Notes: generated by a model not told the origin, from the letters alone. DNA of 64,000 bases from Thermoproteota archaeon (GCA_030550235.1 JAUQPU010000001.1:381068-445067), one strand, 5' to 3'. Counted from the stretch's first letter, positions 13,383 through 60,677 are shown. A program made the numbers and translations.

Positions 13383-13438
13383 GCCTGAACCTCTACTGAG
13401 ACACAACTAAGATATATGAACACCATCAGACAGCATCT

Positions 13439-37625: not shown

Positions 37626-38396
37626 TTGGACGACGGTCTAGTGAAATGTTTAGAGCTGGTAAAGAGCTTCGGTGGTGTTAGGGCAGTCGAGGGAGTAAAC
37701 CTCTCGCTACATGCAGGGGTCTTCTCCCTTCTGATAGGCCCCAACGGCAGCGGGAAGAGCACACTAATCAACCTGATCGCTGGCTACTATTACCCTGACA
37801 GTGGGAAAATATTGATGCATGGGAAGGATATTACGCGCCTCAAGCCTCATGAGCGTTTTAGCATTGGGCTGGTTAGGACTTTCCAGACTGCAAGACTCTT
37901 CACGAGCCTAACAGTGCTTGATAACCTCTTGCTGGCTGCTGGGACCACTGAGGGGGAGAATATCCGGATTGCACCATTTAGGCGTAAATGGCTTGTTAGG
38001 GAGATGGAGATGGTCGAGAAGGCCTATCAAATCTTGGAGCTGGTGGGGCTGGAGAAGCTTAGAGACCAGCCTGCAGGGAAGCTTAGCGGAGGCCAGATGA
38101 AGCTCCTCGAGCTTGGCCGCGTAGTCATGAGCGGAGCCAGAGTAATCTTGATGGATGAGCCGACAGCGGGGCTTAACCCCGTGATAGCCGAGTCAGTCCT
38201 ATCCCATATACGCCGCCTTGTAACCGAGCTAGGCCTAGCCACCCTCCTAGTAGAGCATAGACTGGACCTGGCCATGAAGTATGCCGACAAGGTCTTCGCA
38301 ATGTTTAATGGACGGTTGATCGGGGAGGGGTCGCCGGAGGAGGTTCTCACAATCCCCGACGTTGTCGAGAGTTATCTTGGTGAAAGGCTGGCATGA
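37626..38396 (+). CDS. livG: ABC transporter ATP-binding protein (LivG type)
   Basis: 256 aa; Walker A GPNGSGKST, ABC signature LSGGQ, Walker B ILMDEP. Confidence 0.85.
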   Translation: MDDGLVKCLELVKSFGGVRAVEGVNLSLHAGVFSLLIGPNGSGKSTLINLIAGYYYPDSGKILMHGKDITRLKPHERFSIGLVRTFQTARLFTSLTVLDNLLLAAGTTEGENIRIAPFRRKWLVREMEMVEKAYQILELVGLEKLRDQPAGKLSGGQMKLLELGRVVMSGARVILMDEPTAGLNPVIAESVLSHIRRLVTELGLATLLVEHRLDLAMKYADKVFAMFNGRLIGEGSPEEVLTIPDVVESYLGERLA

Positions 38397-39106
38397 TAAC
38401 TGTTGAGGGTCTAGATGCAGGTTACGGCCGTCTCCAGATACTCTTTAATGTCTCTCTGAAGGCGCCGAGGGGTGAGATTACTGCCATACTAGGCCCCAAT
38501 GGCAGTGGAAAGAGCACCCTGCTTAAGAGCATATTTGGTCAGACCAGCATCTTTAAAGGCTCCATCAACCTGGATGGAGTTGAGCTGGCTGGGCGTCCCC
38601 CTCATAAGATTGCACGCCTAGGTGTAGCCTATCTACCCCAGCTCAACAACCTTTTCACGGGTCTCACTGTAAAGGAGAACCTGTTGATGAGTGGCTATAT
38701 GCTCTCAGAGGAAGAGAGAAGGGAGAGGTCGGAGGAAGTTCTGAGGTTCTTCCCCTTCCTCAGAGGCATGTTCAACAGGAAGGCCGCGACGCTAAGTGGT
38801 GGGGAGCGGCAGATGCTCTCGATAGGTATGGCATTGATGAGACGCCCACAAGTAATTATGCTGGATGAGCCTACAGCTAGTCTATCTCCGAAGATGGTCA
38901 ATATGGTGCTTGACGTTATAAAGAAGCTGAAGGACGACTATGGATTCACCATCCTCCTCGCTGAGCAGAGCGTTATTAAAGCCCTCAAGCTCTCAGACCA
39001 TGCAGCCCTGCTTGTTGGTGGAAGGGTCTTATTTGAGGGCGATCCATCCGAGCTACTAAATAATAGGGAGCTCGGCCGTATGTACTTGGGGCTGAGTGGC
39101 GCGTAA
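38393..39106 (+). CDS. livF: ABC transporter ATP-binding protein (LivF type)
   Basis: 237 aa; Walker A GPNGSGKST, signature LSGGE, Walker B IMLDEP; 4-nt overlap with livG. Confidence 0.85.
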   Translation: MITVEGLDAGYGRLQILFNVSLKAPRGEITAILGPNGSGKSTLLKSIFGQTSIFKGSINLDGVELAGRPPHKIARLGVAYLPQLNNLFTGLTVKENLLMSGYMLSEEERRERSEEVLRFFPFLRGMFNRKAATLSGGERQMLSIGMALMRRPQVIMLDEPTASLSPKMVNMVLDVIKKLKDDYGFTILLAEQSVIKALKLSDHAALLVGGRVLFEGDPSELLNNRELGRMYLGLSGA

Positions 39107-40116
39107 TGCCAATCCAGTATAGGCAGTTGGGGAGGAGCGGGCTAAAGATTTCCTGTCTAGTCATGGGGACGTGGTATCTTCCAACACTTCCAGAGGTGAA
39201 CTCCTATGGTGTCAGGAAGGTGAACGAAGAGGCGACGCTCAAGCTCTGGAGGATGGCAGTCGATATGGGAATAAACACTATAGACACGGCGAACCGTTAT
39301 CATGGAGCCATCGCCCCAGTGCCGGTGACGCACGTAGGCTATGCTGAAAGGCTTCTCGGCAGATTCCTCCAGACAGTTGATAGAGAGTCTCTAGTCATCG
39401 CTACTAAGGTTAGGTTCCCAATGGGGACTGGCCCAAACGACGAGGGCCTCTCGAGGAAGCATATAATGAGGGCGGTCCGAGATAGCCTCTCAAGGCTCCA
39501 GACAGGCTATATCGACCTCTACCAGGCGCATGGCTTCGACCCAACCACGCCGCTTGAAGAGACTATGAAGGCTTTTAACCAGCTTGTCGAGTCTGGGCTG
39601 GTCCACTATATTGGCTGCTCAAACTTCCAAGCTTGGCAGATATCAGAGGCCCTTGCCATCTCAGAGAGGCTTGGTCTAGCGAAGTTTGTGAGCGTCCAGC
39701 CGCTCTACAATCTACTCCAGCGCGACGCTGAGAGGGAGCTCTTCCCACTGGTTAGGCATGCGGGCCTCGGCGTAATATGCTACTCGCCCCTCGCCCAAGG
39801 TCTACTGGCTGGGCGCTATCTCAGAGGAGTTGGTCCAGACGTGAGAGCCTCCTATAGCCCCACAGTCAATCCCCTCCTTACCGAGAGAAACCTCAAGATA
39901 GTTAATGAGCTAGCGTTGATGGCTAAGGAGAAGGGCGTGACGCTGGCCCAGGTCAGCCTAGCTTGGCTCCTTCACCAGCCTGAGGTCACCGCTCCGATAA
40001 TCGGCTGCACTAGACCGGAGCAGCTTGAAGAGAATCTTCAGGCTGTGGATGTGAAGCTCTCCTCGGACGATATTAAAAGAATCGACGAGATTACTAGGCC
40101 GCAGGCTCCTGGATAA
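39106..40116 (+). CDS. Aldo/keto reductase
   Basis: 336 aa; AKR TIM-barrel motifs (GINTIDTANRY...; catalytic Y/K/H tetrad context). Confidence 0.85.
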   Translation: MPIQYRQLGRSGLKISCLVMGTWYLPTLPEVNSYGVRKVNEEATLKLWRMAVDMGINTIDTANRYHGAIAPVPVTHVGYAERLLGRFLQTVDRESLVIATKVRFPMGTGPNDEGLSRKHIMRAVRDSLSRLQTGYIDLYQAHGFDPTTPLEETMKAFNQLVESGLVHYIGCSNFQAWQISEALAISERLGLAKFVSVQPLYNLLQRDAERELFPLVRHAGLGVICYSPLAQGLLAGRYLRGVGPDVRASYSPTVNPLLTERNLKIVNELALMAKEKGVTLAQVSLAWLLHQPEVTAPIIGCTRPEQLEENLQAVDVKLSSDDIKRIDEITRPQAPG

Positions 40117-40128
40117 AAGCTGGAGAGG

Positions 40129-40884
40129 GTGACGTGTCTCTTGCGCGGCTCTCTATTCCACCCCGGCAAATCCTACGGTGTCCTTGAGAGGCTCTTCAAG
40201 GCTGGAGATTTCTCCCTATACTATTTCAGGGCTAAGAAGGGGGATGGGTTCACAGTAGACGCGGATGAGAATGAAAGGCTTGTCTTCTCAACTGATGGGG
40301 AAGTTGTAGTGAACGGCGAGACCCTCGGCGTAAAGGATATGATCTATGCTCCAAGGGGGGCTGGGCTGAGAGTTGTATCGATAAGCGAGTCGAGCATCTA
40401 TCTCGCCGAGGCTCGAGGATTTACAGAGCGGAGGCAGTTTGTGAAGAGGTTTAACGAGTCCGTCAAGGTCGAGTCTGGCCAAGACTGCTATGCACGGGTC
40501 ATCTTTCTGATGGTTAGTGAGAGTGACCATGTCGACCGATTTTTAGCTGGGTATACCGAGGGGGTGGGTGGGTCCTGGACTAGCTACCCTCCTCACAGGC
40601 ACGATGGGAAACCTGAAGCCTATATCTTCTACGGGATGGCTCCTGGCTTTGGTGTGCAGCTCCTAATGGATGATGAGGGTGAGGATGCCTATATAGTCAG
40701 GGATGGGGATGTAGTGCTGATCGAGAGAGGCTACCACCCCAATGTTGGCACATCCTTAAGCGGCATAAAATATGCATGGGTCATCGCGGCTCCACCCGGG
40801 AAGAGAGACCTATCGGTAGAGATTCACCCGCTCTTCAGCTCGGTCCCGCTAAGGACAACACATCTGAAAGTTAAAGAAGGATAG
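40129..40884 (+). CDS. KduI/IolB-family cupin (5-deoxy-glucuronate isomerase-like)
   Basis: 251 aa; bicupin with IolB-like motifs (SYPPHRHD...EAYIFYG). Confidence 0.65.
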   Translation: MTCLLRGSLFHPGKSYGVLERLFKAGDFSLYYFRAKKGDGFTVDADENERLVFSTDGEVVVNGETLGVKDMIYAPRGAGLRVVSISESSIYLAEARGFTERRQFVKRFNESVKVESGQDCYARVIFLMVSESDHVDRFLAGYTEGVGGSWTSYPPHRHDGKPEAYIFYGMAPGFGVQLLMDDEGEDAYIVRDGDVVLIERGYHPNVGTSLSGIKYAWVIAAPPGKRDLSVEIHPLFSSVPLRTTHLKVKEG

Positions 40885-42624: not shown

Positions 42625-43038
42625 TTGAAACTGTTCAGGAGGCGTAGGCCTCTGGGACCGACCATAAGCCTCGAAGAAGCGCTAAAGATGATTCCTGCTA
42701 GAAACCCAAACACCGAATCCTCCACCACCCCCTCAGGAGAGTTGAGTGTCAGGCTTAAAATGCCTCAGCCCCGCGGCCTCCTCCAGCGGCTTCTCCCCAT
42801 CCCCGAGTACCGTACTTTCATACTCGATAAGGTCGGAGGGGTTGTATGGGAGAACATAGATGGTGAGAGAAGTGTCAGAGATATTGTAGATCTGTTGGTT
42901 AAGAGTTTCAAGATGACGCGGGAGGAAGCGGAGATAAGCCTCGTCAACTATCTTCAGATGCTCTACAGCCGAGGCCTCATCTACGTGAAGGTGAGGAAGG
43001 ATAAGGAGGCGGGCCAACGCTTAAATCAATCTGGGTAG
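42625..43038 (+). CDS. PqqD-family protein (RiPP recognition element-type peptide chaperone fold)
   Basis: 137 aa; C-terminal region ILDKVGGVVWENIDGERSVRDIVDLLVKSFKMTREEAEISLVNYLQMLYSRGLI matches the PqqD consensus (LNeta..IWeLiDGkrtv.eIv.eL.eeydv..eea..Dv..Fl..L...gli). Confidence 0.65.
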   Translation: MKLFRRRRPLGPTISLEEALKMIPARNPNTESSTTPSGELSVRLKMPQPRGLLQRLLPIPEYRTFILDKVGGVVWENIDGERSVRDIVDLLVKSFKMTREEAEISLVNYLQMLYSRGLIYVKVRKDKEAGQRLNQSG

Positions 43039-43047
43039 ATGCGTTAA

Positions 43048-43650
43048 ATGATGAGTAGTGGAGAGAGAAAATACGGTCGTGTCTCTTTCCCCCTCAGCGA
43101 GTTATTTAGGCTTGTCACACTCAACATTAGAAAGAGGTTGGGTCGCTCACTTCTGACGACACTTTCCGTCCTTCTAGCGATCGCCTTTATGACGGTAATC
43201 TTCACGCTCAGCTCAGTAAATCGTGCAGCTACGGGGGCTGAATTCGCAGCATATCAATTCTGGCTAATCTTCGTCGCACTTCTTGTGGCTGGCCTTGGGA
43301 TATTCAACTCCCTGTTAATTTCGGTCGCTGAGCGTTACAGGGAGATAGCGACAATCAAGACGCTGGGGGCGGCAGACAGACACATACTACTCCTATACCT
43401 CATAGAGTCTCTTGTGATAGGAATCATTGGCGGCGCCCTCGGTGTAGTAATAGGCCTCGGAGTCAGCATAGGACTTCTAGCAGCCTACGGCAGGGCTGCG
43501 GATATCGGGCTAGTCCCCATCGTGGAGTACCTCTACATAATGGGTCAGGGACTACTATACGCAGCCATACTCTCGCTGGTCGCCACATCCTATCCCTCCT
43601 ACCACGCCTCAAAGATGAGCCCCGCGGAGGCATTCCGCGTCGAGATATGA
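43048..43650 (+). CDS. Minimal FtsX-like ABC permease (4 TM, no extracytoplasmic domain)
   Basis: 200 aa; TM1 followed after only about 20 residues by a canonical FtsX/MacB C-terminal 3-TM domain (RYREIATIKTLGA...); 10-nt gap to PqqD-like gene, ATGA overlap with downstream gene. Confidence 0.6.
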   Translation: MMSSGERKYGRVSFPLSELFRLVTLNIRKRLGRSLLTTLSVLLAIAFMTVIFTLSSVNRAATGAEFAAYQFWLIFVALLVAGLGIFNSLLISVAERYREIATIKTLGAADRHILLLYLIESLVIGIIGGALGVVIGLGVSIGLLAAYGRAADIGLVPIVEYLYIMGQGLLYAAILSLVATSYPSYHASKMSPAEAFRVEI

Positions 43651-44480
43651 GAATCTCCCTAGAGCGGCTAATATTCATGCGAAGGCCTGTAGGAGAGTTC
43701 CTCGAACACGCTTGGAGGGCAGGTGTTGATGGTGTAGAGTTTGCTGAGTTCGAGCTTCAGAGGCTGATACAAGAGGGGAGATACGACCATTCAAGCCTCT
43801 ACAAGGATGTGAAAAATAAGGGTCTAACAATATCGGGAATCTACTGGTCGGCCGAGTTTCACAAGAGCGAGGAACGTTCCAAGATACTATCCCAAGCGGC
43901 GGGGTTGGCGGAGGTTTATGGGAAGATTGAGTGCAGGAATGTTGTGATAGGGCCTCCGCGTGGGGGGCTGGGTGCAGGGCTCCCTCCTAGCCAGGTATAT
44001 AGGCTTCTCGACCAGCTCGTAGAGACTTTGAGGGAAGCCTTAAAAATATTCGTAGACAACGGCATAACTCCCTCGCTCCACAACCACTACGACACACTGA
44101 TCGAGACGGAGGCTGAGCTTGAGTACGTCTTATCTAGGATCGAGCCTGAGCTGCTGAAGTTTTGCCCCGACACGGCCCACCTGGCACTGGCCGGGATGGA
44201 CCCTGTGCAAATGATTAGAAGGCATCTAGACAGGATAGTCTATGCTCACCTTAAGGACCTCAAAAGCTTCCAAGCCGAAGGTAAGCGTGTAGAGAGGTGG
44301 TATGAGCTTACGACGGAGCTAGGCAGTGGCGTGATAGACTTCCCCATGATAGTTAGACTGCTGAGATCTACGGGTAGGGTGGAGTGGCTGGTCGTGGAGC
44401 AGGACTTCACAGAGAAAACCCCTGAGGAGAGTGTGAGGATGAGCCTCAACTACCTAGCCCCTCTGGTTCGGGGAGACTGA
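43647..44480 (+). CDS. Xylose isomerase-like TIM-barrel protein (sugar phosphate isomerase/epimerase, IolE/IolI-like)
   Basis: 277 aa; AP-endonuclease-2/xylose-isomerase TIM barrel pattern with conserved E/D/H metal ligands (HLKD, VVEQD). Confidence 0.7.
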   Translation: MRISLERLIFMRRPVGEFLEHAWRAGVDGVEFAEFELQRLIQEGRYDHSSLYKDVKNKGLTISGIYWSAEFHKSEERSKILSQAAGLAEVYGKIECRNVVIGPPRGGLGAGLPPSQVYRLLDQLVETLREALKIFVDNGITPSLHNHYDTLIETEAELEYVLSRIEPELLKFCPDTAHLALAGMDPVQMIRRHLDRIVYAHLKDLKSFQAEGKRVERWYELTTELGSGVIDFPMIVRLLRSTGRVEWLVVEQDFTEKTPEESVRMSLNYLAPLVRGD

Positions 44481-44520
44481 CGCCTAGAGTCTTTTTATTC
44501 CACTCTGCTGATTTTAGACT

Positions 44521-45495
44521 GTGCCACGAGCTGGTGTAAGATTCGGAATCTCCTTCCCCAACTTCTCGCTAGAATCTGCCGCCAAGATAGCGCGCGATGC
44601 TGAGAAGGCGGGGCTTGATAGCGTGTGGGTCAATGACGACATAGTTGGGGTCTTCCAGAAGGAGACCTTCGACGCCATTCTCTGTATGGCGGAGATGGCT
44701 AGGGCCACTCGTAGGATTAAGATCGGGAGTGCCGTCCTGGCAACATATAGGAGACACCCAGTCAATACTTCGATGTCGCTTGTATCCTTGGACCACATCT
44801 CCGGAGGAAGACTGATAGCTGGTCTAGGAAGCTGCTGCCCTAGCCCAGAGTGGGGATTTCCCCTATCAGGTGACGTGGCTGATAGATTCTTGGAATTCCT
44901 CAACGTCCTGAAGAGACTCCTAACCGGAGGAGCGGTGGAGTTTCAGGGCAGATTCTTCAGCCTAAAGAGCTCGGGCCTAACCGTTAGGCCTAGGCAGAGG
45001 CCCCACCCACCGATATGGGCCGCGGCAAATATAGATAGGACAATAAGGAAAATCGCACAAATAGCTGACGGATGGCTACCGATATGTGTCCCACCACAAA
45101 TCTACACCACGGAGCTTCAGACCCTGCGTGATTCTGCCAAAAGCACAGGGAGAAGGCCGAGGGAGATAGAAGCGGGCCTGATGGCCTTCATTCTGGTGGA
45201 GAAGACGAGGAGTATGGCTCTCAAGAGGGCGATGCCCCTACTTGCTCAAACTGCACTATGGTTTAACGCAGCTAGGATAAGAAAGATGGGCTTCGGGGCA
45301 GTGGGCTCTGTGAGCGATGTAACTCCAGAGATGGTTCAAGCTCTCAACATAGTAGGAACTGTCGAGGAGGCTGCTCAGAGGATAGGGGAGTATATCGATG
45401 CAGGGGCTAGGCACTTAGTCCTACAGCCCCTACCGGTTAAGGAGGCTCGGGAGGCTATTCCACGAATAGTAGATTCGATAAGACAGGCTGTATAG
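44521..45495 (+). CDS. LLM-class (luciferase-like) flavin/F420-dependent oxidoreductase
   Basis: 324 aa; GISFPNF...AGLDSVWVNDD luciferase-like monooxygenase family N-terminus. Confidence 0.8.
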   Translation: MPRAGVRFGISFPNFSLESAAKIARDAEKAGLDSVWVNDDIVGVFQKETFDAILCMAEMARATRRIKIGSAVLATYRRHPVNTSMSLVSLDHISGGRLIAGLGSCCPSPEWGFPLSGDVADRFLEFLNVLKRLLTGGAVEFQGRFFSLKSSGLTVRPRQRPHPPIWAAANIDRTIRKIAQIADGWLPICVPPQIYTTELQTLRDSAKSTGRRPREIEAGLMAFILVEKTRSMALKRAMPLLAQTALWFNAARIRKMGFGAVGSVSDVTPEMVQALNIVGTVEEAAQRIGEYIDAGARHLVLQPLPVKEAREAIPRIVDSIRQAV

Positions 45496-45496
45496 T

Positions 45497-48400
45497 TTAG
45501 CGGAGCTGCTCCCACAGGCTAGTTGGCGTCGTCTCTAAAACTTCAGAATCCCTAATAATACATATTCTCTTGCTGAGTCGCTGGGCAGCGAGTAAGGCGA
45601 TGGAGGAAAGGTAACCATCGTCAGATGAGATGCAGATTAGGTCGCAGTCCTTTGCCGCCTCTATCACAGCCTTGGCATCCGAGACCATCGATCCAGAGCT
45701 AGGTATCCTCACCACGACCACCCTGACCAGGTTCGCCTCCAGCATCTCAACCTCTCTCTTCAAGTCATCCTCTGAGGCCCCTCGCCAAACAACCCTGACC
45801 TCGCTCGGATTATAGACAGTGAGGAGCGGCTGGATATGAGCCAGGTCTCGGGAGAAGGGGACGAGTATCCTGATGGTTAAGGATGTGTACTCTATTATGA
45901 ATTGGCGGATGAGCTGAACGATCTCTCTGACATACTGGTCGATGAACCTAGCATCCTGCGCCTCAATCTTCGACCGGAGTTTGACAAAACCCCATCCGTC
46001 CTGCTCATATACATCAAGTATGCATGAGGCCCTGAATGCTCTCTGCTCGGTAGATGAGTAGGTAAACCTGAGTCTATGCAGACCTGCCTCGGTATTTTCT
46101 TCAACACCATGAACCATAATATTCACGGTGGTGGTATAGCTATATTCGCTGAGCCTCGAGTTCATGTAGGTTATAAAGTGTTTAATCTTCGATACCTTAA
46201 GCTTGGCGGGTAGCTCGACTGTCCAATACCCCTCCTCATCTAAGGCCTTTGTCAGAACCCACTTCCATGTCTGCGCCGGCGTGGAGAGAATGATATTCCT
46301 TCGAACCGATAGTATGTGTGACGAAATGAAAATAACAGATGAGAGGGCGAAAACGCCCATGACGCTCTCCTGAGTTAGTTTGAAGTCAATTGGTATGGGG
46401 ATGATTTTAGGGACTATGCTGAAGACCCCAAGAGTCACCAGGACTCCAAGGTATGAGGAGATTACTCCTAGGAATATAGCTTCCGCGACGCTTAGCAGTA
46501 AGATATGGGCTGGATTAAGACCCAGCGTCGACATTGTCAAAAACTCTCCCCTCCTCTCATAGTAATTCGCCAGTGACGCCACCAAAAGATTTAGAAAGGC
46601 GATGCCTGCAACCACCATAACCTCTCCACCCGATATACTGGCAAGACTAACAAGATTGAAGACGTAAACCTCCCCTCCAGGCCTGATTAGTCTCACCTTC
46701 AGATTGGTGTGAAGACTCATCGTCTCGGCAATCCTATCGATTTCTTCCACACCTCCCCCCGAGGCGTATATCTTGGTTGGCAGCGCACCTAGCTTCAGAG
46801 CCCCGTCAAATCCAGTAATTATGACATTCGACCATCCTGCCGGTGCAACTGGAGACATGGGAGGCATGACTAGCGTCGATAGGAAGTAGCCATCAATATC
46901 CTTAAGATAGGTAGGACAGTCTGTACTTAGTATTCCGTCTATCTGCAGGATCACGCCGTTTACTCTTATCCAAGACCCCACTGTTAAGCCGAGGTTTGCC
47001 GCCAAGTCACTCGAGACGATGGATGCTGAAGGATCTTGTCCAATCCGATTTATCTCCCCCTCGATGATGCATTGTGAGAGCTGCTTCGGTAGGAGGGTGC
47101 TACCCGATACACCAATAACACCCCTCAAGTTATAACTCTTATCGTTGATTATGTATTCGCGGCCCGATGGTGGAAAGATAGGAGTCTCAGCTCGGAGGCC
47201 CAAATCCAGGCCCAAACTTCTGAAGAACTCTACATAGCGGGTATCCACAGGCGCGAGGTTATCGAATCTGTATCCCCTATCATATACTATGATGTATGGT
47301 GTCTCTACTGGGTTAACCTTCTCCGTAGGGTTGGAGATGAATACCTCGCTCTCGACGCCTATGTTGACCAGCAGTAGGGTAGCTGAGACGGTGATCGTGG
47401 CCATGGCAACCATCATCCAGGTTCTGAGGGGCCTAGTTTTTAGAAACCTCTTCGCAACACTGAACGCGAGGGAGGAGGCTGCGAGGAGTGCGACTCCGCG
47501 CTGTGTCTTGACCTCGAGGCCTAGGGCTGGGATGCTCCAGACAAGGCCAACTATTACGAGTATGCTGTAGAGGAGGGCGGACCATCCCCACGCATCGCTA
47601 GGCAGGATTGAAGGATGAGAAGCAGCAATAAGGCTGAAAGTAAAGATACTTAGCAAGGACAGGCCAGCAGCTATACTAGACTTCTTCTCACCTAAGACTA
47701 GGTGGCTCAGGGAGAGCGCCCCCAAAACTAGGAACAATGGAAGTAGAATCCCACCACCCCATCTCACACTATAATCGTTTAATGCAGAGTTGATTCCTAC
47801 AAGGTCGATGTAGGTTTTTCGGAGCAGTTGATACGCCTCACCCATGTTTCCCAGGAGATAATGCTCCCTCGAGGCTGCGAGACGCTCCTCAGCCTTTTTA
47901 AGCCTATCAAGCTGATAGCCAAGATAGATGCCAGACTGTGAAAGCCCTTGAAGCCTATAGCCGGTCACCTCGGTGAAATTCTGAACGGCGCCAAATGCTC
48001 TAGGGTAAATAGTGTGCAGCAGAGAGACGATTCGATTCTCGCCTATAAGGCCTGTAAGGTCTTCCATCCATCTAAGCCCTTCACCACCTACTACCGCAAA
48101 CTCTCCATAAAGCCTATAGTCAATAGACTGTGGGACCAGAATTTCGCCATCTCCAAGACCTATCAACCTCTTCAGCACATCAATACTATGGCTCCAGTGG
48201 ATCTCACTGGGATACCAAAGCCCTGCCCCCCACAGCTCAAGCCTATACCGGGCTGAGACGGGGCTGCCATCAATCCAGGGATACAGTCCAATAAACCTGA
48301 CAATGGATGCCCTTTGAAGAACTATCGCCGGCTCTGAATCTAAATAGGGAAGGAGTTTGAGGATAGATATATCGACCGGAAGATATGTCCTTCCATCCTC

Positions 48401-48670
48401 AACTAACGGGCCCACAAGGCGAGAGCCCAGAACTACCGATGCTTCTAAACGCCCATCCCTAGTTTCTAAAAGTACCCGCTCGCCTGAAGGCTCCAACAAA
48501 ATAAACTTCAGCCCGTCCTCCACCGGCATATAATCGTTATCTAATACAGTTATGACTATGGTGGTCGAGTTATCCCTAGCTGTATCCGTGTTTGCTGTAG
48601 CACATACTGTAAACAGCATAAAGATAACAGTCAGCGAGACAGGCGTCAAAGCTGCTAAACGGTAATCCAA
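45497..48670 (-). CDS. Giant FtsX-family permease with large extracytoplasmic domains and a C-terminal cytoplasmic USP-like (universal stress protein-type a/b) domain
   Basis: 1057 aa; signal/TM N-terminus, about 10 predicted TM helices, FtsX domain near residues 650-790, C-terminal about 250 aa soluble domain ending ...DLICISSDDGYLSSIALLAAQRLSKRICIIRD resembling the USP G-x2-G...S nucleotide-binding tail. Confidence 0.55.
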   Translation of the reverse strand: MDYRLAALTPVSLTVIFMLFTVCATANTDTARDNSTTIVITVLDNDYMPVEDGLKFILLEPSGERVLLETRDGRLEASVVLGSRLVGPLVEDGRTYLPVDISILKLLPYLDSEPAIVLQRASIVRFIGLYPWIDGSPVSARYRLELWGAGLWYPSEIHWSHSIDVLKRLIGLGDGEILVPQSIDYRLYGEFAVVGGEGLRWMEDLTGLIGENRIVSLLHTIYPRAFGAVQNFTEVTGYRLQGLSQSGIYLGYQLDRLKKAEERLAASREHYLLGNMGEAYQLLRKTYIDLVGINSALNDYSVRWGGGILLPLFLVLGALSLSHLVLGEKKSSIAAGLSLLSIFTFSLIAASHPSILPSDAWGWSALLYSILVIVGLVWSIPALGLEVKTQRGVALLAASSLAFSVAKRFLKTRPLRTWMMVAMATITVSATLLLVNIGVESEVFISNPTEKVNPVETPYIIVYDRGYRFDNLAPVDTRYVEFFRSLGLDLGLRAETPIFPPSGREYIINDKSYNLRGVIGVSGSTLLPKQLSQCIIEGEINRIGQDPSASIVSSDLAANLGLTVGSWIRVNGVILQIDGILSTDCPTYLKDIDGYFLSTLVMPPMSPVAPAGWSNVIITGFDGALKLGALPTKIYASGGGVEEIDRIAETMSLHTNLKVRLIRPGGEVYVFNLVSLASISGGEVMVVAGIAFLNLLVASLANYYERRGEFLTMSTLGLNPAHILLLSVAEAIFLGVISSYLGVLVTLGVFSIVPKIIPIPIDFKLTQESVMGVFALSSVIFISSHILSVRRNIILSTPAQTWKWVLTKALDEEGYWTVELPAKLKVSKIKHFITYMNSRLSEYSYTTTVNIMVHGVEENTEAGLHRLRFTYSSTEQRAFRASCILDVYEQDGWGFVKLRSKIEAQDARFIDQYVREIVQLIRQFIIEYTSLTIRILVPFSRDLAHIQPLLTVYNPSEVRVVWRGASEDDLKREVEMLEANLVRVVVVRIPSSGSMVSDAKAVIEAAKDCDLICISSDDGYLSSIALLAAQRLSKRICIIRDSEVLETTPTSLWEQLR

Positions 48671-48764: not shown

Positions 48765-50309
48765 ATGAAGCTTGATGCAATTAACATTTTATACATTCTT
48801 ACTTTGAGTGGTTTAATTTTAGCTGGTGCCACACTGCGCCTCTATAATTTGGATGCAGAGAGCGGATGGCACGATTATGATGAAGGAGTACACCTATCGG
48901 CGGCCTTGCTTCTATCCAGAGGCTACACACCGTATGTCGACTTCTTTTTCGCCCATCCTCCACTCTCCCTCCACATCCTAACATACACTGTGGGAGATGG
49001 TGGGAGTGAGGCGTATGCACGGTCAAGGTCTGTATCAGCGGTTCTAGGATCTTTAACTTTGATAGTTTTAGCGGCTGCTGCTCATCTCTCGGTTGGAAAG
49101 ATAACTGCGCTCGCGGGAACAGCTTTTCTAGCCCTTGATGGCTTCGTTTCATACAATTCGAGGATGGTCATGCTAGAGCCCTATACCGACTTCTTCCTCT
49201 CACTATCTGTCATATGCTACGTCTTGCTTAAAAGATGTAGAAATTCTAGGCAGGAGATTCTATCCTCGACTGGCTCTGGAGTTGCTTTAGGCCTGTCTGT
49301 CTCCTCGAAAATGACCGGGCTATTCGGAGCCGCTGCAATTATACTCCACGCACTGGTGTTCAAGAGGACTCGCGCTTCTTTATTCATAATTGCCTCAGCT
49401 GCCCTGACTTATCTCTTGATAAGCGCGAAATACATCTTTGCAGACCCTGACGCATATCTTAAACAGACAGTCCTCTTCCATATCGTCAGGCCGCAAGATG
49501 GTATACCTCAGTCTGAGAGGCTTCACTGGTTACTAACATCTATCTTGGATTTAGGGGTGATGTGGGCTGGTTTTCCAGCCCTTGCCGCCGCCCTACTCAT
49601 GGCTCCACATCTCTCCCGCTCAAAAGTAATCTCTCATGAATCCTACATATGGATAATGTGGAGTCTTTCATACTTGATAGCGTTCTCCATGACAAAAACC
49701 TTCTTTGGGCATTACGTCCAACATATTATAACCCCCCTCTCCTTCGTCCCTGGCATGGCATTGGAGTTCGGGTCAAAGTTTAGGCTTCCACCTTGGAGAG
49801 GATCTATAGTCCATGTATTCTCTACCAGAATCTTACCGGTCTGGATAATATTCATGGCTCTGACACAGGCCGGCATAATATCTGCGGTTAATCCACCCGC
49901 CACGAGAGATGACACGCCTGTAATGGTGTCCATGCGGCTCATAGATCTTGGAGCAGCCAGTTTCTCCATAATCGCTTTTGAGCCCATCTACACCTTTTTA
50001 TCAAAAACAACTCCCTCAAACAGAGTCATAGATTCCTATGGGTACATGATGTATGAGGGCATGGGGTTAGGGCGCTTCGGATTCCTAGAAGCGCTCATGA
50101 AATATTTCTCTGGTGAGCTCTATAGCTCTTGGCCAATATATGAGGAGAGAATACAGGAAAAAATGGTGAGGGATATTCTCGTCAGCGACTACGTCATAAT
50201 TGACTGGCGCGCGAGATGGCAGCTTACAAGACCCTCGCTCTATACAGTCTATCAACACATGACCTGCCTCAATAGAGTAAGGGATATTGAGATCTGTGGG
50301 GTCTCATAA
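48765..50309 (+). CDS. GT-C fold membrane glycosyltransferase (PMT/ArnT, GT39/GT83-like)
   Basis: 514 aa polytopic; first extracytoplasmic loop carries the DE motif (HDYDEGVH...YTPYVDFFFAHPPL) diagnostic of PMT/ArnT-family GT-C enzymes. Confidence 0.7.
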   Translation: MKLDAINILYILTLSGLILAGATLRLYNLDAESGWHDYDEGVHLSAALLLSRGYTPYVDFFFAHPPLSLHILTYTVGDGGSEAYARSRSVSAVLGSLTLIVLAAAAHLSVGKITALAGTAFLALDGFVSYNSRMVMLEPYTDFFLSLSVICYVLLKRCRNSRQEILSSTGSGVALGLSVSSKMTGLFGAAAIILHALVFKRTRASLFIIASAALTYLLISAKYIFADPDAYLKQTVLFHIVRPQDGIPQSERLHWLLTSILDLGVMWAGFPALAAALLMAPHLSRSKVISHESYIWIMWSLSYLIAFSMTKTFFGHYVQHIITPLSFVPGMALEFGSKFRLPPWRGSIVHVFSTRILPVWIIFMALTQAGIISAVNPPATRDDTPVMVSMRLIDLGAASFSIIAFEPIYTFLSKTTPSNRVIDSYGYMMYEGMGLGRFGFLEALMKYFSGELYSSWPIYEERIQEKMVRDILVSDYVIIDWRARWQLTRPSLYTVYQHMTCLNRVRDIEICGVS

Positions 50310-50939
50310 GTTAAGAGCCCTGGACTCGAGTTCTCGGGTAAATTCTATAAGTTCCCCGGCGAGAAAGTCAAGAAGCTCATATATCCTTTTAACGATTGGC
50401 CCAAACCTCCATTCAGAGCCAGGTCCCTTAATGGCTGTTATGAGCCATCCAATCATCTTAGGAGACTCGTAGTGTTTTCTGAGAGCATCGTCGGGCGAGC
50501 TCGCGCCGGTTAGGTCAAAGTAAGTGTTTACGTGCAGCTCATCGACGACGGAGCGCTTAAGCAGTCTTAAGAGTTGATTGTTTCTGTTTAGCCTTATCAT
50601 TAAATCATCTACGGGAGCCACATCTGGGAACACTTTGGATAAGAGCTCTGACGTTACCCACTCGTAAGAATACCTAAATATCCCCCGCCTCCTTATCTGG
50701 ACCTCTCTACGCTTCATCTCCCTATATAGCTGCCCTCCACTATCATCCACCACTTCGCGGATAATTAGAGGTGTTACAAAATGCCACTCCCAGTCGAAAG
50801 ATATCCCCACCAATCTTCGAGAAATCTTCAAGCTACGCAGCCTCGAGTCTTTGAGTAGAATCACCCATCCATCAAGGTCCCAAGAGGCACTATCCACATT
50901 TTTCCCGAGTGCTAGCTTGATAACCTCTAATTCGCTCAA
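50304..50939 (-). CDS. Hypothetical soluble protein co-transcribed downstream of polytopic membrane protein A
   Basis: 211 aa ORF, 45-nt gap after upstream gene on same strand; no recognisable family. Confidence 0.45.
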   Translation of the reverse strand: MSELEVIKLALGKNVDSASWDLDGWVILLKDSRLRSLKISRRLVGISFDWEWHFVTPLIIREVVDDSGGQLYREMKRREVQIRRRGIFRYSYEWVTSELLSKVFPDVAPVDDLMIRLNRNNQLLRLLKRSVVDELHVNTYFDLTGASSPDDALRKHYESPKMIGWLITAIKGPGSEWRFGPIVKRIYELLDFLAGELIEFTRELESRALNL

Positions 50940-55135: not shown

Positions 55136-55933
55136 GTGAAGCTCTCATGCCAGGATAATCTTGTACCGGGCAGCACCTTGACTGAGAAGCTTGAGAACTT
55201 GGAGAAGCTGGGATTCAGCGGAATAGAGCTTTGGGGTAGGCCTCACCTGGGCGAGAATCTTAGAGAGGTGAAGGATACGCTGGCATCTTTTAAAGTGAGC
55301 CCATCGGTCATCTGCGCAGGGTACAGTGGAGACCTCCTCAGTCCTGAGCCTAAGGCAAGAGCTGAAGCAGTTCAGGGGATAGTTCAGAGGCTTGAATGGG
55401 CCAGCGAGATTGGGGCCGTAGGCGTCATATTCGTCCCAACATTTGGTGGAGCCAAACTTCCTGATCTATCACCGCTCTATCAAAACGTCATCGAACTTGA
55501 AAAAAGATTGCTGGTAGCTGAGTGTAAGACTCTGGCTAAGAAGGGGGAGGAGCTGGGTGTATGCGCCATATTAGAGCCGCTCAACAGATACGAGACACAT
55601 CTGATAAATACTCTCAAACAAGGATTAGAGATTATAAGGGAAGTAAACTATGAAGGTTTAAGGCTGATGGCCGATTTCTTTCACATGAACATAGAGGAGA
55701 GTAACATCGATGACGCTTTGTCAGAAGCGTCAGACTACTTGGTGCATGTGCACCTAGCCGACAGCAACAGATGCCTCCCAGGCTACGGGCACACTGATTT
55801 CACACCCATAAAGATACTTCTATCAAGAGGGTACAGCAAGTATTTCTCGCTGGAGTGCAGAATAATTGGCGACCCACTGGAGGAGCTGAGAAAATTTGTA
55901 AAATTTATTTCTAAATATGGTGATGTGAGATGA
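55136..55933 (+). CDS. Xylose isomerase-like TIM-barrel protein (sugar phosphate isomerase/epimerase, IolI/IolE-like)
   Basis: 265 aa; TIM-barrel AP-endo2 family motifs (ILEPLNRYE, HLAD, E/H metal ligands). Confidence 0.75.
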   Translation: MKLSCQDNLVPGSTLTEKLENLEKLGFSGIELWGRPHLGENLREVKDTLASFKVSPSVICAGYSGDLLSPEPKARAEAVQGIVQRLEWASEIGAVGVIFVPTFGGAKLPDLSPLYQNVIELEKRLLVAECKTLAKKGEELGVCAILEPLNRYETHLINTLKQGLEIIREVNYEGLRLMADFFHMNIEESNIDDALSEASDYLVHVHLADSNRCLPGYGHTDFTPIKILLSRGYSKYFSLECRIIGDPLEELRKFVKFISKYGDVR

Positions 55934-56910
55934 ATCCGATAGGTATAGTTTTAATTGGCTGTGGCGGCATAATGAATGTCCATGCAAAGAGTCTAATGAC
56001 GTTAAGGGATGGTGTCCGCGTTGTAGCTTGTGCTGACATTGTGAAGGAGAGGGCAGAAGAGTTTGCAAATAGGTTTGGATGCGCGGCCTATACGGATCCT
56101 GTGGAAGCTGTGTCCGAGACGCATCCTGACGTCGCAATAATAGCTGTCCCGCCAAATGCACATGGATTTGAGGAAGAGATAATCGAGCATGGAGTTCACC
56201 TCTTGATAGAAAAGCCTGTGGCAATAAATCTAGAAGTAGCCTCACGCATACTGCGTAAGATTGAGAAGGCCGGAGTTATCAATAGTGTAGGCTACATGTG
56301 GAGATATCTTGATGTTGTCCAGATAGCGAAGAAAGAGATCTCCAACCCCGCTGATATCGGGATGATTTATGGACAGTATGTTTGGGCAGCGAACTTTCCG
56401 CCTGGGCACTGGTGGTTGAGAAAATCCCAGAGCGGCGGGCAGATAGTCGAGCAAGTCACACATATGGTCGACCTAATAAGATACTTCGCGGGGGAGGCTT
56501 CTTCAGTCTATGCAAGGCTTGAAAAAAGGCTCTCGAAGGATGAGGCAATAGACGTTGAGGATTCCTCCGTAATCACTATCAGGCATAAAAGCGGCGTCAC
56601 ATCCACGATAGTGGCCACCTGGAAGAGTACAAACACAATGCAGGATACGTTCATACGGATATTTGCCAGAGACCTAGTGGCAGATATTGTTGGGCATCAG
56701 AGGAAAGCAACATTCTATAGGACCAATAAGGTTGAGGAACTGAGGAGTGCTGTTGACCCATATCTTGAGGAGCTACGGACATTTGTTGAGGCTGTACGAA
56801 CCGGAGATCAGTCTAGAATACTTTCACCCTATTCGGACGCATACAAGACCCTCGAGTTGACCATCAAGGCGAATGAATCTCACAAGTTGGCCAGGATAAT
56901 CGAGGTTTGA
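55930..56910 (+). CDS. Gfo/Idh/MocA-family NAD(P)-dependent oxidoreductase (IolG-like)
   Basis: 326 aa; N-terminal Rossmann GxGxxG (IGCGGIMN) and EKP motif (LLIEKPVA) diagnostic of the family; ATGA overlap with upstream TIM-barrel gene. Confidence 0.8.
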   Translation: MNPIGIVLIGCGGIMNVHAKSLMTLRDGVRVVACADIVKERAEEFANRFGCAAYTDPVEAVSETHPDVAIIAVPPNAHGFEEEIIEHGVHLLIEKPVAINLEVASRILRKIEKAGVINSVGYMWRYLDVVQIAKKEISNPADIGMIYGQYVWAANFPPGHWWLRKSQSGGQIVEQVTHMVDLIRYFAGEASSVYARLEKRLSKDEAIDVEDSSVITIRHKSGVTSTIVATWKSTNTMQDTFIRIFARDLVADIVGHQRKATFYRTNKVEELRSAVDPYLEELRTFVEAVRTGDQSRILSPYSDAYKTLELTIKANESHKLARIIEV

Positions 56911-58571
56911 GTGGTCAGCAGCTAAACAAAAGGTACGCAGTCGCCCTTTGCGTGACCCTCCTCTCTTACTGGCTATTTAGCAGTGGGGTATTCTCATATC
57001 AATATGTGCCATTGACTTCCATGCCGGCGTACAAGCCCTATTTTCAGGATGTCACGAGTGATTCAGGTCTCTTAGTAAGAGTAGTCGATGACCGAGAGAT
57101 GGTATGGATCCCGGGCGGTGGGAGCTGTTGGGGAGATTACGATAGGGATGGCGACCTAGACGTTTATGTCGTGGGCTGGAATGCAACTGGAAGGTTATTC
57201 AGGAATGATGGCGGCCTGTTTACGGATGTGACGCGTGAGTCTGGACTTCTTATCGAGGGTATTGTTGCCGGGAAGGGAATGGGCTGCTCTTGGGCCGACT
57301 ATGATAACAGTGGATTTCCATCTCTGCTTGTAACCTTCTACGATTCTCCCTATGGCAATGTTCACCTGTTTAAAAACCTGGGCGATGGCTCGTTTAGGCT
57401 TGTAACAGATGAGGTGGGCCTCTCTCTTAATCATGGAAGATATGCCTCTGGGGTCGCCTGGGGAGATGTAAATAGGGACGGATGTCTTGACCTCTATATA
57501 GGCTACTACATCAACCTCCGACAGGTCAAAGAGGGCGCAATATTCAGCCAAGGCTCTGGAAATCAGCTCTTCATCAACAACTGTGACGGCTCCTTCAGAG
57601 AATCCGCTGAAATCTACGGTGTCGTTGACTATGGCTATACATTCCAACCCATTTTCATAGACTACGACCTAGACTTTTTCCCTGACCTTTTCCTGGCCAA
57701 TGACTTCGGATACACGAGGCTGTATAGGAACGAGGAGGGTAGGCGTTTCATCCTATCCGCATCGTCTATAGGTGCTGAGAGAGTAGGACAGTGGATGGGG
57801 GTAGCGTATGGGGACTTAGACATGGATGGATACTGGGATATAATTGTGACAAATTACGACGACAACCTCCTCCTAAAATATACAGGTGCGTATTTTAACG
57901 ATATCACGGCAAGGCTCAGGCTAACAGATCCCTACCAGGTCGGCTGGGGAGTATGCATCATCGACATAGACAATAATGGCCTTCTCGACATAATAGTGGC
58001 TAATGGTAAGATAGGCGTTAGGACTGACAAGCCAAGCAATCAAGTTAACAGGGTCTTCTATAATGCTGGGCCATTCTTCTATGATGCCACGTGGCATGCG
58101 GGGCTCATAAGACATGTCAACACACGTGGATTGTCATGCGTGGACATGGACAAAGACGGAGGCGTTGACCTACTATTCTATGACTTACTAGGGTATCCTA
58201 TACTGTATAGAAACCTGATATCGAATTATACAGGCAATCGGTGGGTTCAGGTGAGGCTCGAGGGGGCTACCTGGCTCTGCGGCGCCTGCACCTACAGGAC
58301 TAGCAGGGAGGCTGTAGGCGCTGTAGTGGAGGTGGAGTCTTTAGGTAAGATTTACCGTCAGACAGTTACAAAGGGTACTTCATTCATGTCAGATAATGGC
58401 CCCTGGCTGTACTTTGGCTTAGGGCGGGCCTCTCGTATTGAGAGATTGACAGTCTATTGGCCTAGTGGAATAGTAGAGAATTATAGAGACCTCCCGGTAA
58501 ATAGTGTAATCTTGATCGTGGAGCAAGGGGGTTGCAGTGTGATCGGTGGATTGTCGGGGCATGAAGAGTGA
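56907..58571 (+). CDS. Secreted FG-GAP/VCBS-repeat protein with ASPIC/UnbV-like C-terminal domain (CRTAC1-like)
   Basis: 554 aa; signal peptide/TM; at least 7 repeats of the WxDYDxDGDxDxxV FG-GAP calcium-binding motif; C-terminal ASPIC-like region. Confidence 0.7.
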   Translation: MSGQQLNKRYAVALCVTLLSYWLFSSGVFSYQYVPLTSMPAYKPYFQDVTSDSGLLVRVVDDREMVWIPGGGSCWGDYDRDGDLDVYVVGWNATGRLFRNDGGLFTDVTRESGLLIEGIVAGKGMGCSWADYDNSGFPSLLVTFYDSPYGNVHLFKNLGDGSFRLVTDEVGLSLNHGRYASGVAWGDVNRDGCLDLYIGYYINLRQVKEGAIFSQGSGNQLFINNCDGSFRESAEIYGVVDYGYTFQPIFIDYDLDFFPDLFLANDFGYTRLYRNEEGRRFILSASSIGAERVGQWMGVAYGDLDMDGYWDIIVTNYDDNLLLKYTGAYFNDITARLRLTDPYQVGWGVCIIDIDNNGLLDIIVANGKIGVRTDKPSNQVNRVFYNAGPFFYDATWHAGLIRHVNTRGLSCVDMDKDGGVDLLFYDLLGYPILYRNLISNYTGNRWVQVRLEGATWLCGACTYRTSREAVGAVVEVESLGKIYRQTVTKGTSFMSDNGPWLYFGLGRASRIERLTVYWPSGIVENYRDLPVNSVILIVEQGGCSVIGGLSGHEE

Positions 58572-59924: not shown

Positions 59925-60677
59925 CTACGCCTGTTTTTCTCGGCTTTCCTCAACCTCTATCTCGCCGACCCTCACCTTCACCGCGACCCTCTCCTCCTCC
60001 CTCTCTATTTTTCCATCACGTATCCATAGAATCCTGTCAGATACATCTATCATCTTCAAGTCGTGGGTCGCTGCTATGACTGTAACTTTCCTATCCAAGT
60101 TAAGCTGTTTTAGCAGGTCTATAATTTGCCTGCCAGTCTTCAGGTCAAGGTTTCCGGTTGGCTCATCTGCCAGTATTATGCTTGGGTCATTGGCTAATGC
60201 CCTAGCTATCGCGACCCTCTGCTGCTGACCTCCGGAGAGTTCCATAGGTCTGTGATGGAGCCTGTCGCCAAGCCCAACTGTCTGGAGGAGTTCAGTAGCC
60301 TTTCTAAACCTATCCTCCCTGCTGACGCCTGCGAAAATCATGGGAAGCATCACATTCTCTAATGCCGTCAATGTTGGGATGAGATTAAAAGTTTGGAAGA
60401 TGTACCCAATCTTTCTATTTCTGAGCCAAGCCAGCTCGTATGAGTCTAGCTTCGAGATATCGACGCCATCGACATAGACTGTACCCTCCGTGGGCTTGTC
60501 TAGTCCACCGATCATGTTGAATAGAGTAGTCTTGCCTGAGCCTGAGGGGCCCATAATAGAGATATACTCGCCGCGATAGATCTTGAGATCAACGCCGTCT
60601 AGGGCTACAACATCAACTTTTCCCAGCTTATAGATCTTTTTTAAACCCTCGGTCGCGACTACGACCTCTCTTGCCAA
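59925..60677 (-). CDS. ABC transporter ATP-binding protein, MacB/LolD/FtsE type (partner class for FtsX permeases)
   Basis: 250 aa; Walker A GPSGSGKTT, Q-loop, signature LSGGQQQR, Walker B ILADEPTGNLD, H-loop ATHD. Confidence 0.85.
   Translation of the reverse strand: MAREVVVATEGLKKIYKLGKVDVVALDGVDLKIYRGEYISIMGPSGSGKTTLFNMIGGLDKPTEGTVYVDGVDISKLDSYELAWLRNRKIGYIFQTFNLIPTLTALENVMLPMIFAGVSREDRFRKATELLQTVGLGDRLHHRPMELSGGQQQRVAIARALANDPSIILADEPTGNLDLKTGRQIIDLLKQLNLDRKVTVIAATHDLKMIDVSDRILWIRDGKIEREEERVAVKVRVGEIEVEESREKQA

Follow-up and report, generated by a model that had tools for sequence, protein, structure and literature searches.

Which ATPase, if any, drives an FtsX-type permease whose gene lies apart from every MacB-type ATPase gene, and what would its cytoplasmic tail sense? 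This question was raised by a locus of a Thermoproteota archaeon (GCA_030550235.1, JAUQPU010000001.1:381068-445067). The analysed stretch of 64,000 nucleotides (nt), the window, carries at 45497-48670 a gene for a protein of 1057 amino acids (aa), here called the large FtsX. The first-pass annotation had read this protein as an FtsX permease whose tail resembled a universal stress protein (USP), and had proposed that one distant ATPase (59925-60677) serves both this protein and a 200-aa mini-FtsX (43048-43650). The analysis points to a CARF domain at the end of the tail. The CARF-tailed large FtsX is probably the larger permease of a mechanotransmission system of the type VII ATP-binding cassette (ABC) class, with its genes dispersed over 18 kb.

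The assignment of the large FtsX to the FtsX/MacB type of permease was upheld by Pfam, by Foldseek matches to LolE and LolC, and by a conserved ER..E..G motif. A single FtsX domain was detected (PF02687 at aa 686-790, E 1.7e-8, 35 bits compared to a gathering cut-off of 25.5). The loop between transmembrane (TM) helices TM6 and TM7 holds the canonical coupling-helix motif, NYYERRGEFLTMSTLGLNPAHI. This helix (N702-I723) was invariant in the clade and was the best conserved stretch of the distant family, in which E705, R706, E709, S714 and G717 were nearly invariant. When the coupling helices of the large and the mini-FtsX were compared by HHalign, identity was 44% over 63 columns. The segment is expected to be the docking site for an ABC ATPase.

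The FtsX module consists of a basic pre-TM helix, a TM helix, a LolE-like second extracytoplasmic domain (ECD2), and three TM helices that include the coupling helix. The canonical basic amphipathic pre-TM helix is FSVAKRFLKTRPLRTW, and its residues R413, R416 and L419 were nearly invariant across the distant family; TM5 (aa 419-437) serves as TM1 of the module. In Foldseek, ECD2 matched the LolE periplasmic domain 5udf (E 1.8e-5, TM score 0.48) and LolCDE 9rld_C (E 1.2e-5). The window protein had no Pfam MacB_PCD match of its own at E<=10, whereas this domain was matched in the homologues P0003, P0005, P0014, P0017 and L042. The Pfam domain search proposed earlier was thus borne out for FtsX, for MacB_PCD in homologues only, and not for Usp.

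The module is preceded by the signal anchor, ECD1 and three TM helices, and is followed by two C-terminal domains (CTDs), CTD1 and the CARF domain. Hydropathy and the helices of the AlphaFold2 (AF2) model gave eight TM helices plus one amphipathic cytoplasmic helix, which replaces the earlier count of about 10 TM helices. The N-terminal signal anchor and the two large extracytoplasmic domains were seen by both approaches, as had been described, and the cytoplasmic C-terminal region measured 263 aa (aa 795-1057) compared to the claimed "about 250 aa". ECD1 was modelled as a beta-sandwich portion followed by three long helices. It had no Pfam match and is the variable part of the large-FtsX family, being replaced or extended by other domains in relatives. 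TM1-4 with ECD1 were also considered as a degenerate second FtsX unit forming a pseudo-dimer. This was rejected at an HHalign probability of 0.1% against the FtsX half; the TM2-TM3 loop is just five residues long and has no coupling helix.

The open reading frame (ORF) at 45497-48670 was judged to be real. Full-length homologues (n=11) with 45-66% identity could be aligned from residue 1, and a TTTATA box about 30 nt away and a GGAG a few nt away lie upstream of the start. Those of the eleven homologues with source names came from Calditenuaceae or Nitrososphaerota archaea; by the source names of the closest database relatives, the host archaeon would belong to the family Calditenuaceae. A clade profile searched against 1.84 billion cluster representatives returned 1017 relatives at E<=1e-3, and the distant relatives originated from Bathyarchaeota, Thermoprotei and bacteria. 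The full-length distant alignment, used as a query, recovered mostly the own clade again plus bacterial M28 fusions, and a profile of the C-terminal region as a query for homologous proteins recovered two proteins only. The PADLOC model PDLC01991, named 'CARF_m8--CARF_LolE_TM', aligned with aa 239-1057 over model positions 10-810 of 810 (E 2.6e-209). Judged by such named PADLOC hidden Markov models (HMMs), the protein belongs to a family that has been catalogued and is still uncharacterised, and the architecture of PDLC01991 is like that of the window protein from end to end. The CARF_m8 names of PADLOC reportedly follow the CARF classification that Makarova et al. gave in Nucleic Acids Res 2020;48:8828. 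In the open literature, no paper was found on a CARF-FtsX or CARF-LolE protein.

The ATPase at 59925-60677 was matched best by the NCBIfam models LolD (2.1e-75), MacB (2.6e-70) and FtsE (2.8e-62), with YbbA and DevA also among the best, and its Walker A, signature, Walker B and H-loop motifs are all intact. It had been called the sole candidate ATPase of the window. This stands in so far as it is the only MacB-type one; it is not the only ABC ATPase, as two more (37626-38396 and 38393-39106), of the LivG/LivF type, lie beside a Peripla_BP_6 binding protein. The mini-FtsX was confirmed by Pfam (Table 1). No MacB-type ATPase gene adjoins the large FtsX gene in the clade or in the distant relatives examined.

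Relatives of the ATPase were scanned in one genome per species, and their loci were annotated with profiles of the window proteins. The counts refer to the best-scoring 80 of 566 loci. Among the 53 loci whose ATPase was at least 59% identical to the window copy, the mini-FtsX was present in 35, the large FtsX in 22, the OPT-like protein in 22 and the PqqD-like protein in 17, and an ordinary MacB permease of about 400 aa in 2. Among the 27 loci below 59% identity, the same genes were found in 1, 3, 2 and 2 loci, respectively, and the ordinary MacB permease in 19. The mini-FtsX gene typically lies just upstream of the ATPase gene, and the order PqqD, mini-FtsX, ATPase was kept in 17/53 loci. In many bacteria the order is large FtsX, OPT-like, PqqD, mini-FtsX and ATPase. 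In Desulfobacterales it is mini-FtsX, ATPase, large FtsX, DUF6785/6784 and OPT-like; in Desulfobacula (L048) these five genes form a tight operon in which the ATPase and large-FtsX ORFs overlap. In Bathyarchaeota, mini-FtsX is followed by the ATPase and the large FtsX is convergent.

As the two genes share an operon in bacterial and archaeal relatives, the distant ATPase probably powers the large FtsX as well. The earlier proposal of one ATPase for the large and the mini-FtsX is thus supported by the gene linkage of ATPase orthologues in many bacteria and archaea, and ATPase 59925-60677 would serve both permeases.

Alternatively, the large FtsX could be a passive, ATPase-free membrane anchor or scaffold for its extracytoplasmic domains, with the ATPase serving the mini-FtsX only. 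The ATPase was indeed found more consistently beside the mini-FtsX (35/53 loci) than beside the large FtsX (22/53), and in loci L001-L010 the ABC ATPases within 10 kb of the large gene were LivG/LivF-type pairs only. Furthermore, in the relative P0068 (L011:580-4158 and L012:345-3923, two independent assemblies), whose gene adjoins a DUF6785 gene, an ABC domain is fused after CTD1, and this domain is degenerate (Walker A GEGRRA, signature LKRGD, Walker B LLLEDP). The fusion shows proximity of an ABC domain to CTD1, which counts towards an ATPase partnership, and not activity. However, the coupling helix is the most conserved stretch across bacteria and archaea, and a protein that docks nothing on its cytoplasmic side would hardly account for this. 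The large gene also clusters with the ATPase in 22 loci, with overlapping ORFs in L048, and a second ATPase paralogue was present in eleven loci, several of them with both permeases alongside. An anchor without an ATPase is therefore regarded as unlikely.

The ATPase was 93% identical to the window copy in a metagenome-assembled genome of Calditenuaceae, 76% in Bathyarchaeia, and 62-71% in Latescibacterota, Armatimonadota, Planctomycetota, Verrucomicrobiota and Desulfobacterales. For an ABC ATPase, an identity of 62-76% across archaea and distant bacterial phyla (L015-L067) is unusually high; it suggests either strong constraint or horizontal transfer of the system.

The window contains six gene types that recur in bacterial and archaeal loci (L007-L012, L019, L022 and L048 among others), frequently in compact operons; in the window all lie within 18 kb and on both strands: PqqD-like, mini-FtsX, large FtsX, DUF6785/DUF6784, OPT-like and ATPase. 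The OPT-like protein could be aligned over its entire length, with 29% identity and E 2e-47, to the product of the gene after the large FtsX in a Gram-negative bacterium. A DUF6785/DUF6784 gene adjoins family members in L007-L012 and L048 and was also found in further loci, and the OPT-like and DUF6785 proteins share the motif E-[ER]-L-x-[FY]-P-L. No paper on DUF6785, DUF6784 or a PqqD-FtsX link was found in the open literature. This larger conserved gene set, with its OPT-like, DUF6785 and PqqD-like proteins, had been overlooked by the first-pass annotation. The names of PDLC01991 and PDLC01990 reflect neither the majority of members that have no CARF domain nor the set of ATPase, mini-FtsX, OPT-like, DUF6785 and PqqD genes.

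Comparison of relatives divided the cytoplasmic tail into CTD1 (aa 797-930) and CTD2 (aa 931-1057), and an AF2 model of the tail was built from 30 diverse sequences. CTD1, modelled as a beta-alpha-beta4-alpha sandwich, occurs family-wide: relatives of both class A and class B have it, and so do bacterial members. It had no Pfam match and no relatives among PDB sequences, and Foldseek gave only weak Bet v1/START/PsbP-like matches with a high root-mean-square deviation (rmsd), by which no fold family was assigned. The earlier description had missed that the tail has two domains and that the one shared by the whole family is CTD1 rather than the Rossmann-like part.

CTD2 is, on profile matches and the modelled fold, a CARF domain of a catalogued minor family. 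The last 130 residues matched PDLC01991 at positions 679-810 (E 4.4e-32), and in the relative L042 (953 aa), which has no CARF domain, the match to this model ends at position 681. All 30 family tails matched both 'CARF_m8--CARF_LolE_TM' and 'CARF_m8--CARF_Beta-galactosidase_LolE_TM'; 13/30 also matched CARF1--CARF_HEPN (best 3.3e-9), and 2-6 of the 30 each matched the models Csx1/Csm6 (8e-7), Csx1 (6.9e-8), Csa3 or CARF4_PDDEXK. CTD2 was recognised by PADLOC only, Pfam and NCBIfam being uninformative on C-terminal pieces. Among the 30 members, two matched Pfam HFX_2341_N (best E 6.7e-4), which is a Csa3-like protein (PMC11434293). The AF2 model of the tail (pLDDT 87) showed for CTD2 four beta-alpha units followed by a beta-beta hairpin, a fold read from the succession of secondary structures. 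The low-rmsd leaders of the Foldseek search against PDB were Cam1, Csa3, Csx1, VC1899, Can2, Csm6 and a CRISPR-associated deaminase. Profiles searched against PDB sequences (E<=10) gave weak matches to several CARF proteins, including Crn1 and DUF1887.

The USP-like tail described earlier was not recovered. A USP-like adenine-nucleotide-binding domain that adds a stress input would share with CTD2 a Rossmann-like alpha/beta architecture of about 130 residues, and the hydrophobic beta4, small-residue loop and helix of CTD2 superficially resemble the USP tail. However, no HMM, motif or structural-neighbour support for the USP family (PF00582) was obtained. Pfam Usp gave no match at E<=10 on the CTD pieces, nor at E<=1 on the 30 members, and neither the profile searches of PDB sequences (E<=10) nor the 50 best Foldseek hits of the predicted C-terminal structure contained a USP chain. 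The ATP motif of USPs is G-x2-G-x9-G-[ST]; it is absent from CTD2, where the sequence after beta4 reads S-S-D-D-G-Y-L-S-S-I-A-L-L-A-A-Q. Strong and specific CARF-model matches were found instead. The USP reading is very improbable and is already refuted at the level reachable with the tools used. Of the proposed nucleotide- or stress-sensing input, the idea of a cytoplasmic small-molecule sensor survives; the type of sensor would be CARF, with its cyclic-oligoadenylate context, and not USP.

The best conserved spot of CTD2 is the S-S-D-D-G loop after beta4, which sits where the 'TGGTK' ligand loop of CARF domains lies and which in distant members has the counterpart [STN]-G-G-[STPA] in the aligned block. 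Together with it, the loop after beta1, P-x-[GS]-x-[SD], is among the best conserved spots of the domain. The CARF ligand loops are reportedly described by Makarova et al. in 2014 as a polar S/T that follows beta1 and a [DN]x[ST]xxx[RK] motif that follows beta4. The CARF domain is confined to a subset of the archaeal family members. Most members, including all bacterial ones seen, have the same partner genes without a CARF domain, and the core function therefore does not depend on CARF.

The presence of a CARF domain raises another possibility, namely an ancillary membrane effector of type III CRISPR or of another cyclic-oligonucleotide system. In this case, a CARF dimer bound to cyclic oligoadenylate (cOA) would switch the permease to a state that damages or closes the envelope and arrests the infected cell. 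Cam1 is a CRISPR-linked pore former and would be the precedent: it is itself a CARF-plus-TM protein, and its CARF domain is the nearest solved structure to CTD2 (PDB 8t64, 8t65 and 8t66; target-normalised TM score 0.59-0.67, rmsd 2.6-4.0, identity about 10%). The family is also listed under a CARF name in a defence-system HMM library. However, the PDB chains of Cam1 have about 130-155 residues and, unlike the window protein, no FtsX, MacB-type or ABC component. The checks for CRISPR and for a source of cyclic oligonucleotides covered the 64-kb window. There, no CRISPR-like repeats were found, no cas genes were among the genes scanned against Pfam, all of which were housekeeping or metabolic, and no long ORF carried a GGDD/GGDE motif, so that no Cas10 was found. 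The stable chromosomal synteny across the clade, the CARF-less majority with the same partner genes and the missing basic residue of the CARF ligand loop also argue against an effector of this kind, and it is considered quite unlikely.

Relatives of the large FtsX carry further domains at their outer face. ECD1 fusions comprised glycoside hydrolase family 2 (GH2), peptidase M28, a transglutaminase-like core and a CarboxypepD_reg beta-sandwich. Among the GH2 glycosidase fusions, one source name was beta-mannosidase and P0017 matched Mannosidase_ig; the GH2-fused variants P0015 and P0017 correspond to PDLC01990, 'CARF_m8--CARF_Beta-galactosidase_LolE_TM'. In P0032 (L013:2167-6771), the large FtsX is fused C-terminally to a PMT-type GT-C glycosyltransferase, and the gene just upstream combines GT2 with GtrA_DPMS_TM, a domain pair that we take to be Dol-P-Man-synthase-like. 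In the window, a PMT-family gene is the divergent neighbour of the large FtsX; this adjacency is conserved in the clade, and a functional link between the two is possible. The PMT fusion, the PMT neighbour and the GH2/beta-mannosidase fusions may reflect a mannose or glycoprotein theme. Two archaeal loci each contained two large FtsX paralogues (L009:1566-5522 and 10001-13162; L010:3065-7645 and 10001-16210), one of the M28-peptidase type and one of the CARF-bearing or GH2-CARF type, flanking OPT-like and DUF6785 genes. Such paralogues could pair with each other rather than with the mini-FtsX. Fusions and partner genes are taken, by inference only, to indicate an ATP-driven machine that acts on glyco- or peptide substrates at the surface or outside the cell.

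In the type VII system favoured here, the parts would be the PqqD-like protein, the mini-FtsX, the large FtsX, the DUF6785/6784 protein, the OPT-like protein and the ATPase at 59925-60677. Two copies of the ATPase would dock on the coupling helices of the permeases, which may assemble as a large/mini heterodimer like LolC/LolE or as two homodimers using the same ATPase. ATP hydrolysis would move the extracytoplasmic domains. These would act on a cell-surface (glyco)protein or peptide; in relatives, this place is taken by GH2, M28 peptidase or transglutaminase-like domains. The OPT-like and DUF6785 proteins would handle the substrate or product. The CARF domain, present in a subset of archaeal members, would sense a ligand in the cytoplasm and modulate the machine in a lineage-specific way.

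Several points weigh against this arrangement. The complex is read from gene linkage; many of the ATPase loci lie on truncated contigs, and 15/53 close ATPase loci had neither FtsX gene within 10 kb. In the window, the genes are spread over both strands with sugar-metabolism genes in between, an arrangement that does not imply co-regulation. The ABC domain fused to the large FtsX in P0068 is degenerate, and in the full-length AF2 model the TM region is of low reliability (pLDDT <50, pTM 0.35). As for the sensor, known CARF domains bind their ligand as dimers, whereas a large/mini heterodimer leaves one CARF domain per complex. The CARF loop is also acidic (SSDDG), without the conserved Lys/Arg of [DN]x[ST]xxx[RK], which makes it doubtful that an anionic cyclic oligoadenylate is bound.

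MacB, LolCDE and FtsEX are type VII ABC transporters, and a mechanotransmission model was proposed for MacB (review PMC8277102). Like these systems, the window protein has a single FtsX module, in which a Porter/Sabre-type extracytoplasmic domain separates the first TM helix from the second, and an ER..E..G coupling helix, and its probable partner is a LolD/MacB/FtsE-like ATPase. Heterodimerisation with a different FtsX protein, which is possible, would recall LolC/LolE, and the outer-face hydrolase domains of relatives recall the control of cell-wall hydrolases by FtsEX. In type VII ABC systems such as these three, the mechanical work takes place outside the membrane. Unlike them, the window protein has four extra N-terminal TM helices, a second large extracytoplasmic domain and a tail of CTD1 and CARF; its partner permease, the mini-FtsX, has no extracytoplasmic domain at all. 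Its constant association with OPT-like, DUF6785 and PqqD-like proteins also differs, as does the unlinked arrangement of the genes in this genome. To our knowledge, the well-studied type VII ABC systems are all bacterial, and none has a cytoplasmic sensor domain.

A bolder proposal would take the six genes as a previously undescribed ABC-driven envelope machine of bacteria and archaea. Cis-fused hydrolases would process surface or external (glyco)peptides, and the products would pass to the OPT-like permeases; in some archaea that acquired the CARF domain, mechanotransmission would be gated through it by a cyclic nucleotide of the cytoplasm, for which type III CRISPR signalling is a possible source. 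We put this forward tentatively, as a rather doubtful extension. The multi-gene system and its distribution across both domains of life may be undescribed.

If the proposed system is correct, it would offer a naturally occurring link between a CARF sensor and a mechanotransmission permease, with no CRISPR context visible. An 'orphan' FtsX pair and an 'orphan' ATPase would be explained as one dispersed system, which bears on annotation and on transporter counts in archaeal genomes. Furthermore, the DUF6785/DUF6784 and OPT-like families would be linked with an ABC motor and with extracytoplasmic domains of the GH2, M28 and transglutaminase-like kinds. Their function would thereby become testable in cultivable bacteria with the compact operon.

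Table 1. Features of the large FtsX gene and of the associated genes in the 64-kb window (positions counted from the first nucleotide of the window).
Feature	Coordinates	Strand	Basis
PqqD-like protein, 137 aa, directly upstream of mini-FtsX	42625..43038	+	Pfam PqqD E 9.8e-11
Mini-FtsX, 200 aa, 4 TM, without extracytoplasmic domain	43048..43650	+	Pfam FtsX E 1.1e-17
Large FtsX/LolE-type permease gene with CARF tail	45497..48670	-	TTG start, 1057 aa
CTD2, CARF domain (Rossmann-like, beta5-beta6 hairpin), aa 931-1057	45500..45880	-	PADLOC + Foldseek
S-S-D-D-G loop after beta4, aa 1015-1019	45614..45628	-	Invariant columns S1015-G1019
CTD1, aa 797-930, alpha+beta domain (beta-alpha-beta4-alpha)	45881..46282	-	AF2 pLDDT ~90
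TM6-TM8, Pfam FtsX domain, aa 681-796	46283..46630	-	PF02687
Coupling-helix motif N-Y-Y-E-R-R-G-E-F-L-T-M-S-T-L-G-L-N-P-A-H-I, aa 702-723	46502..46567	-	
ECD2, aa 438-680, MacB/LolE-type periplasmic core domain	46631..47359	-	Foldseek
Cytoplasmic loop with basic amphipathic pre-TM helix, then TM5, aa 384-437	47360..47521	-	Hydropathy
TM2-TM4, aa 306-383, extra three-helix bundle, not FtsX-like	47522..47755	-	Hydropathy
ECD1, aa 27-305	47756..48592	-	AF2 pLDDT 75-93
TM1, N-terminal signal anchor, aa 5-26	48593..48658	-	Hydropathy; AF2 helix 5-26
PMT-family GT-C glycosyltransferase, divergent neighbour of large FtsX	48765..50309	+	Pfam PMT, PMT_2
DUF6785/DUF6784 polytopic membrane protein, 696 aa	50984..53074	-	Pfam
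OPT-like polytopic membrane protein, 635 aa	53190..55097	+	Pfam OPT E 5e-7
MacB/LolD-type ABC ATPase	59925..60677	-	NCBIfam, motifs, operon linkage in relatives

The window is archaeal and chromosomal; it contains genes for diphthamide synthase, a class I (Leu-type) tRNA synthetase, the large chain of carbamoyl-phosphate synthase and cytochrome b. The synteny around the large FtsX gene was stable across the clade.

Between the DUF6785 and PMT genes, a 211-aa ORF (50304-50939, minus strand) keeps its position throughout the clade; it had no Pfam or NCBIfam match and no detectable relative in other loci. A 452-aa polytopic membrane protein (58546-59904, plus strand), convergent with the ATPase gene and conserved in the clade, had no Pfam or NCBIfam match. 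It was considered as a hidden permease partner and was rejected, being a polytopic membrane protein without an FtsX or other family match. A 554-aa FG-GAP/ASPIC (UnbV) repeat protein (56907-58571, plus strand) also lies in the conserved neighbourhood and is possibly extracellular.

The interleaved genes of the sugar/inositol type (39106-40884, 43647-45495 and 55136-56910) encode an aldo/keto reductase, KduI/IolB, two AP_endonuc_2 TIM barrels, a GFO_IDH_MocA oxidoreductase and a luciferase-like monooxygenase, and their arrangement is conserved across the clade.

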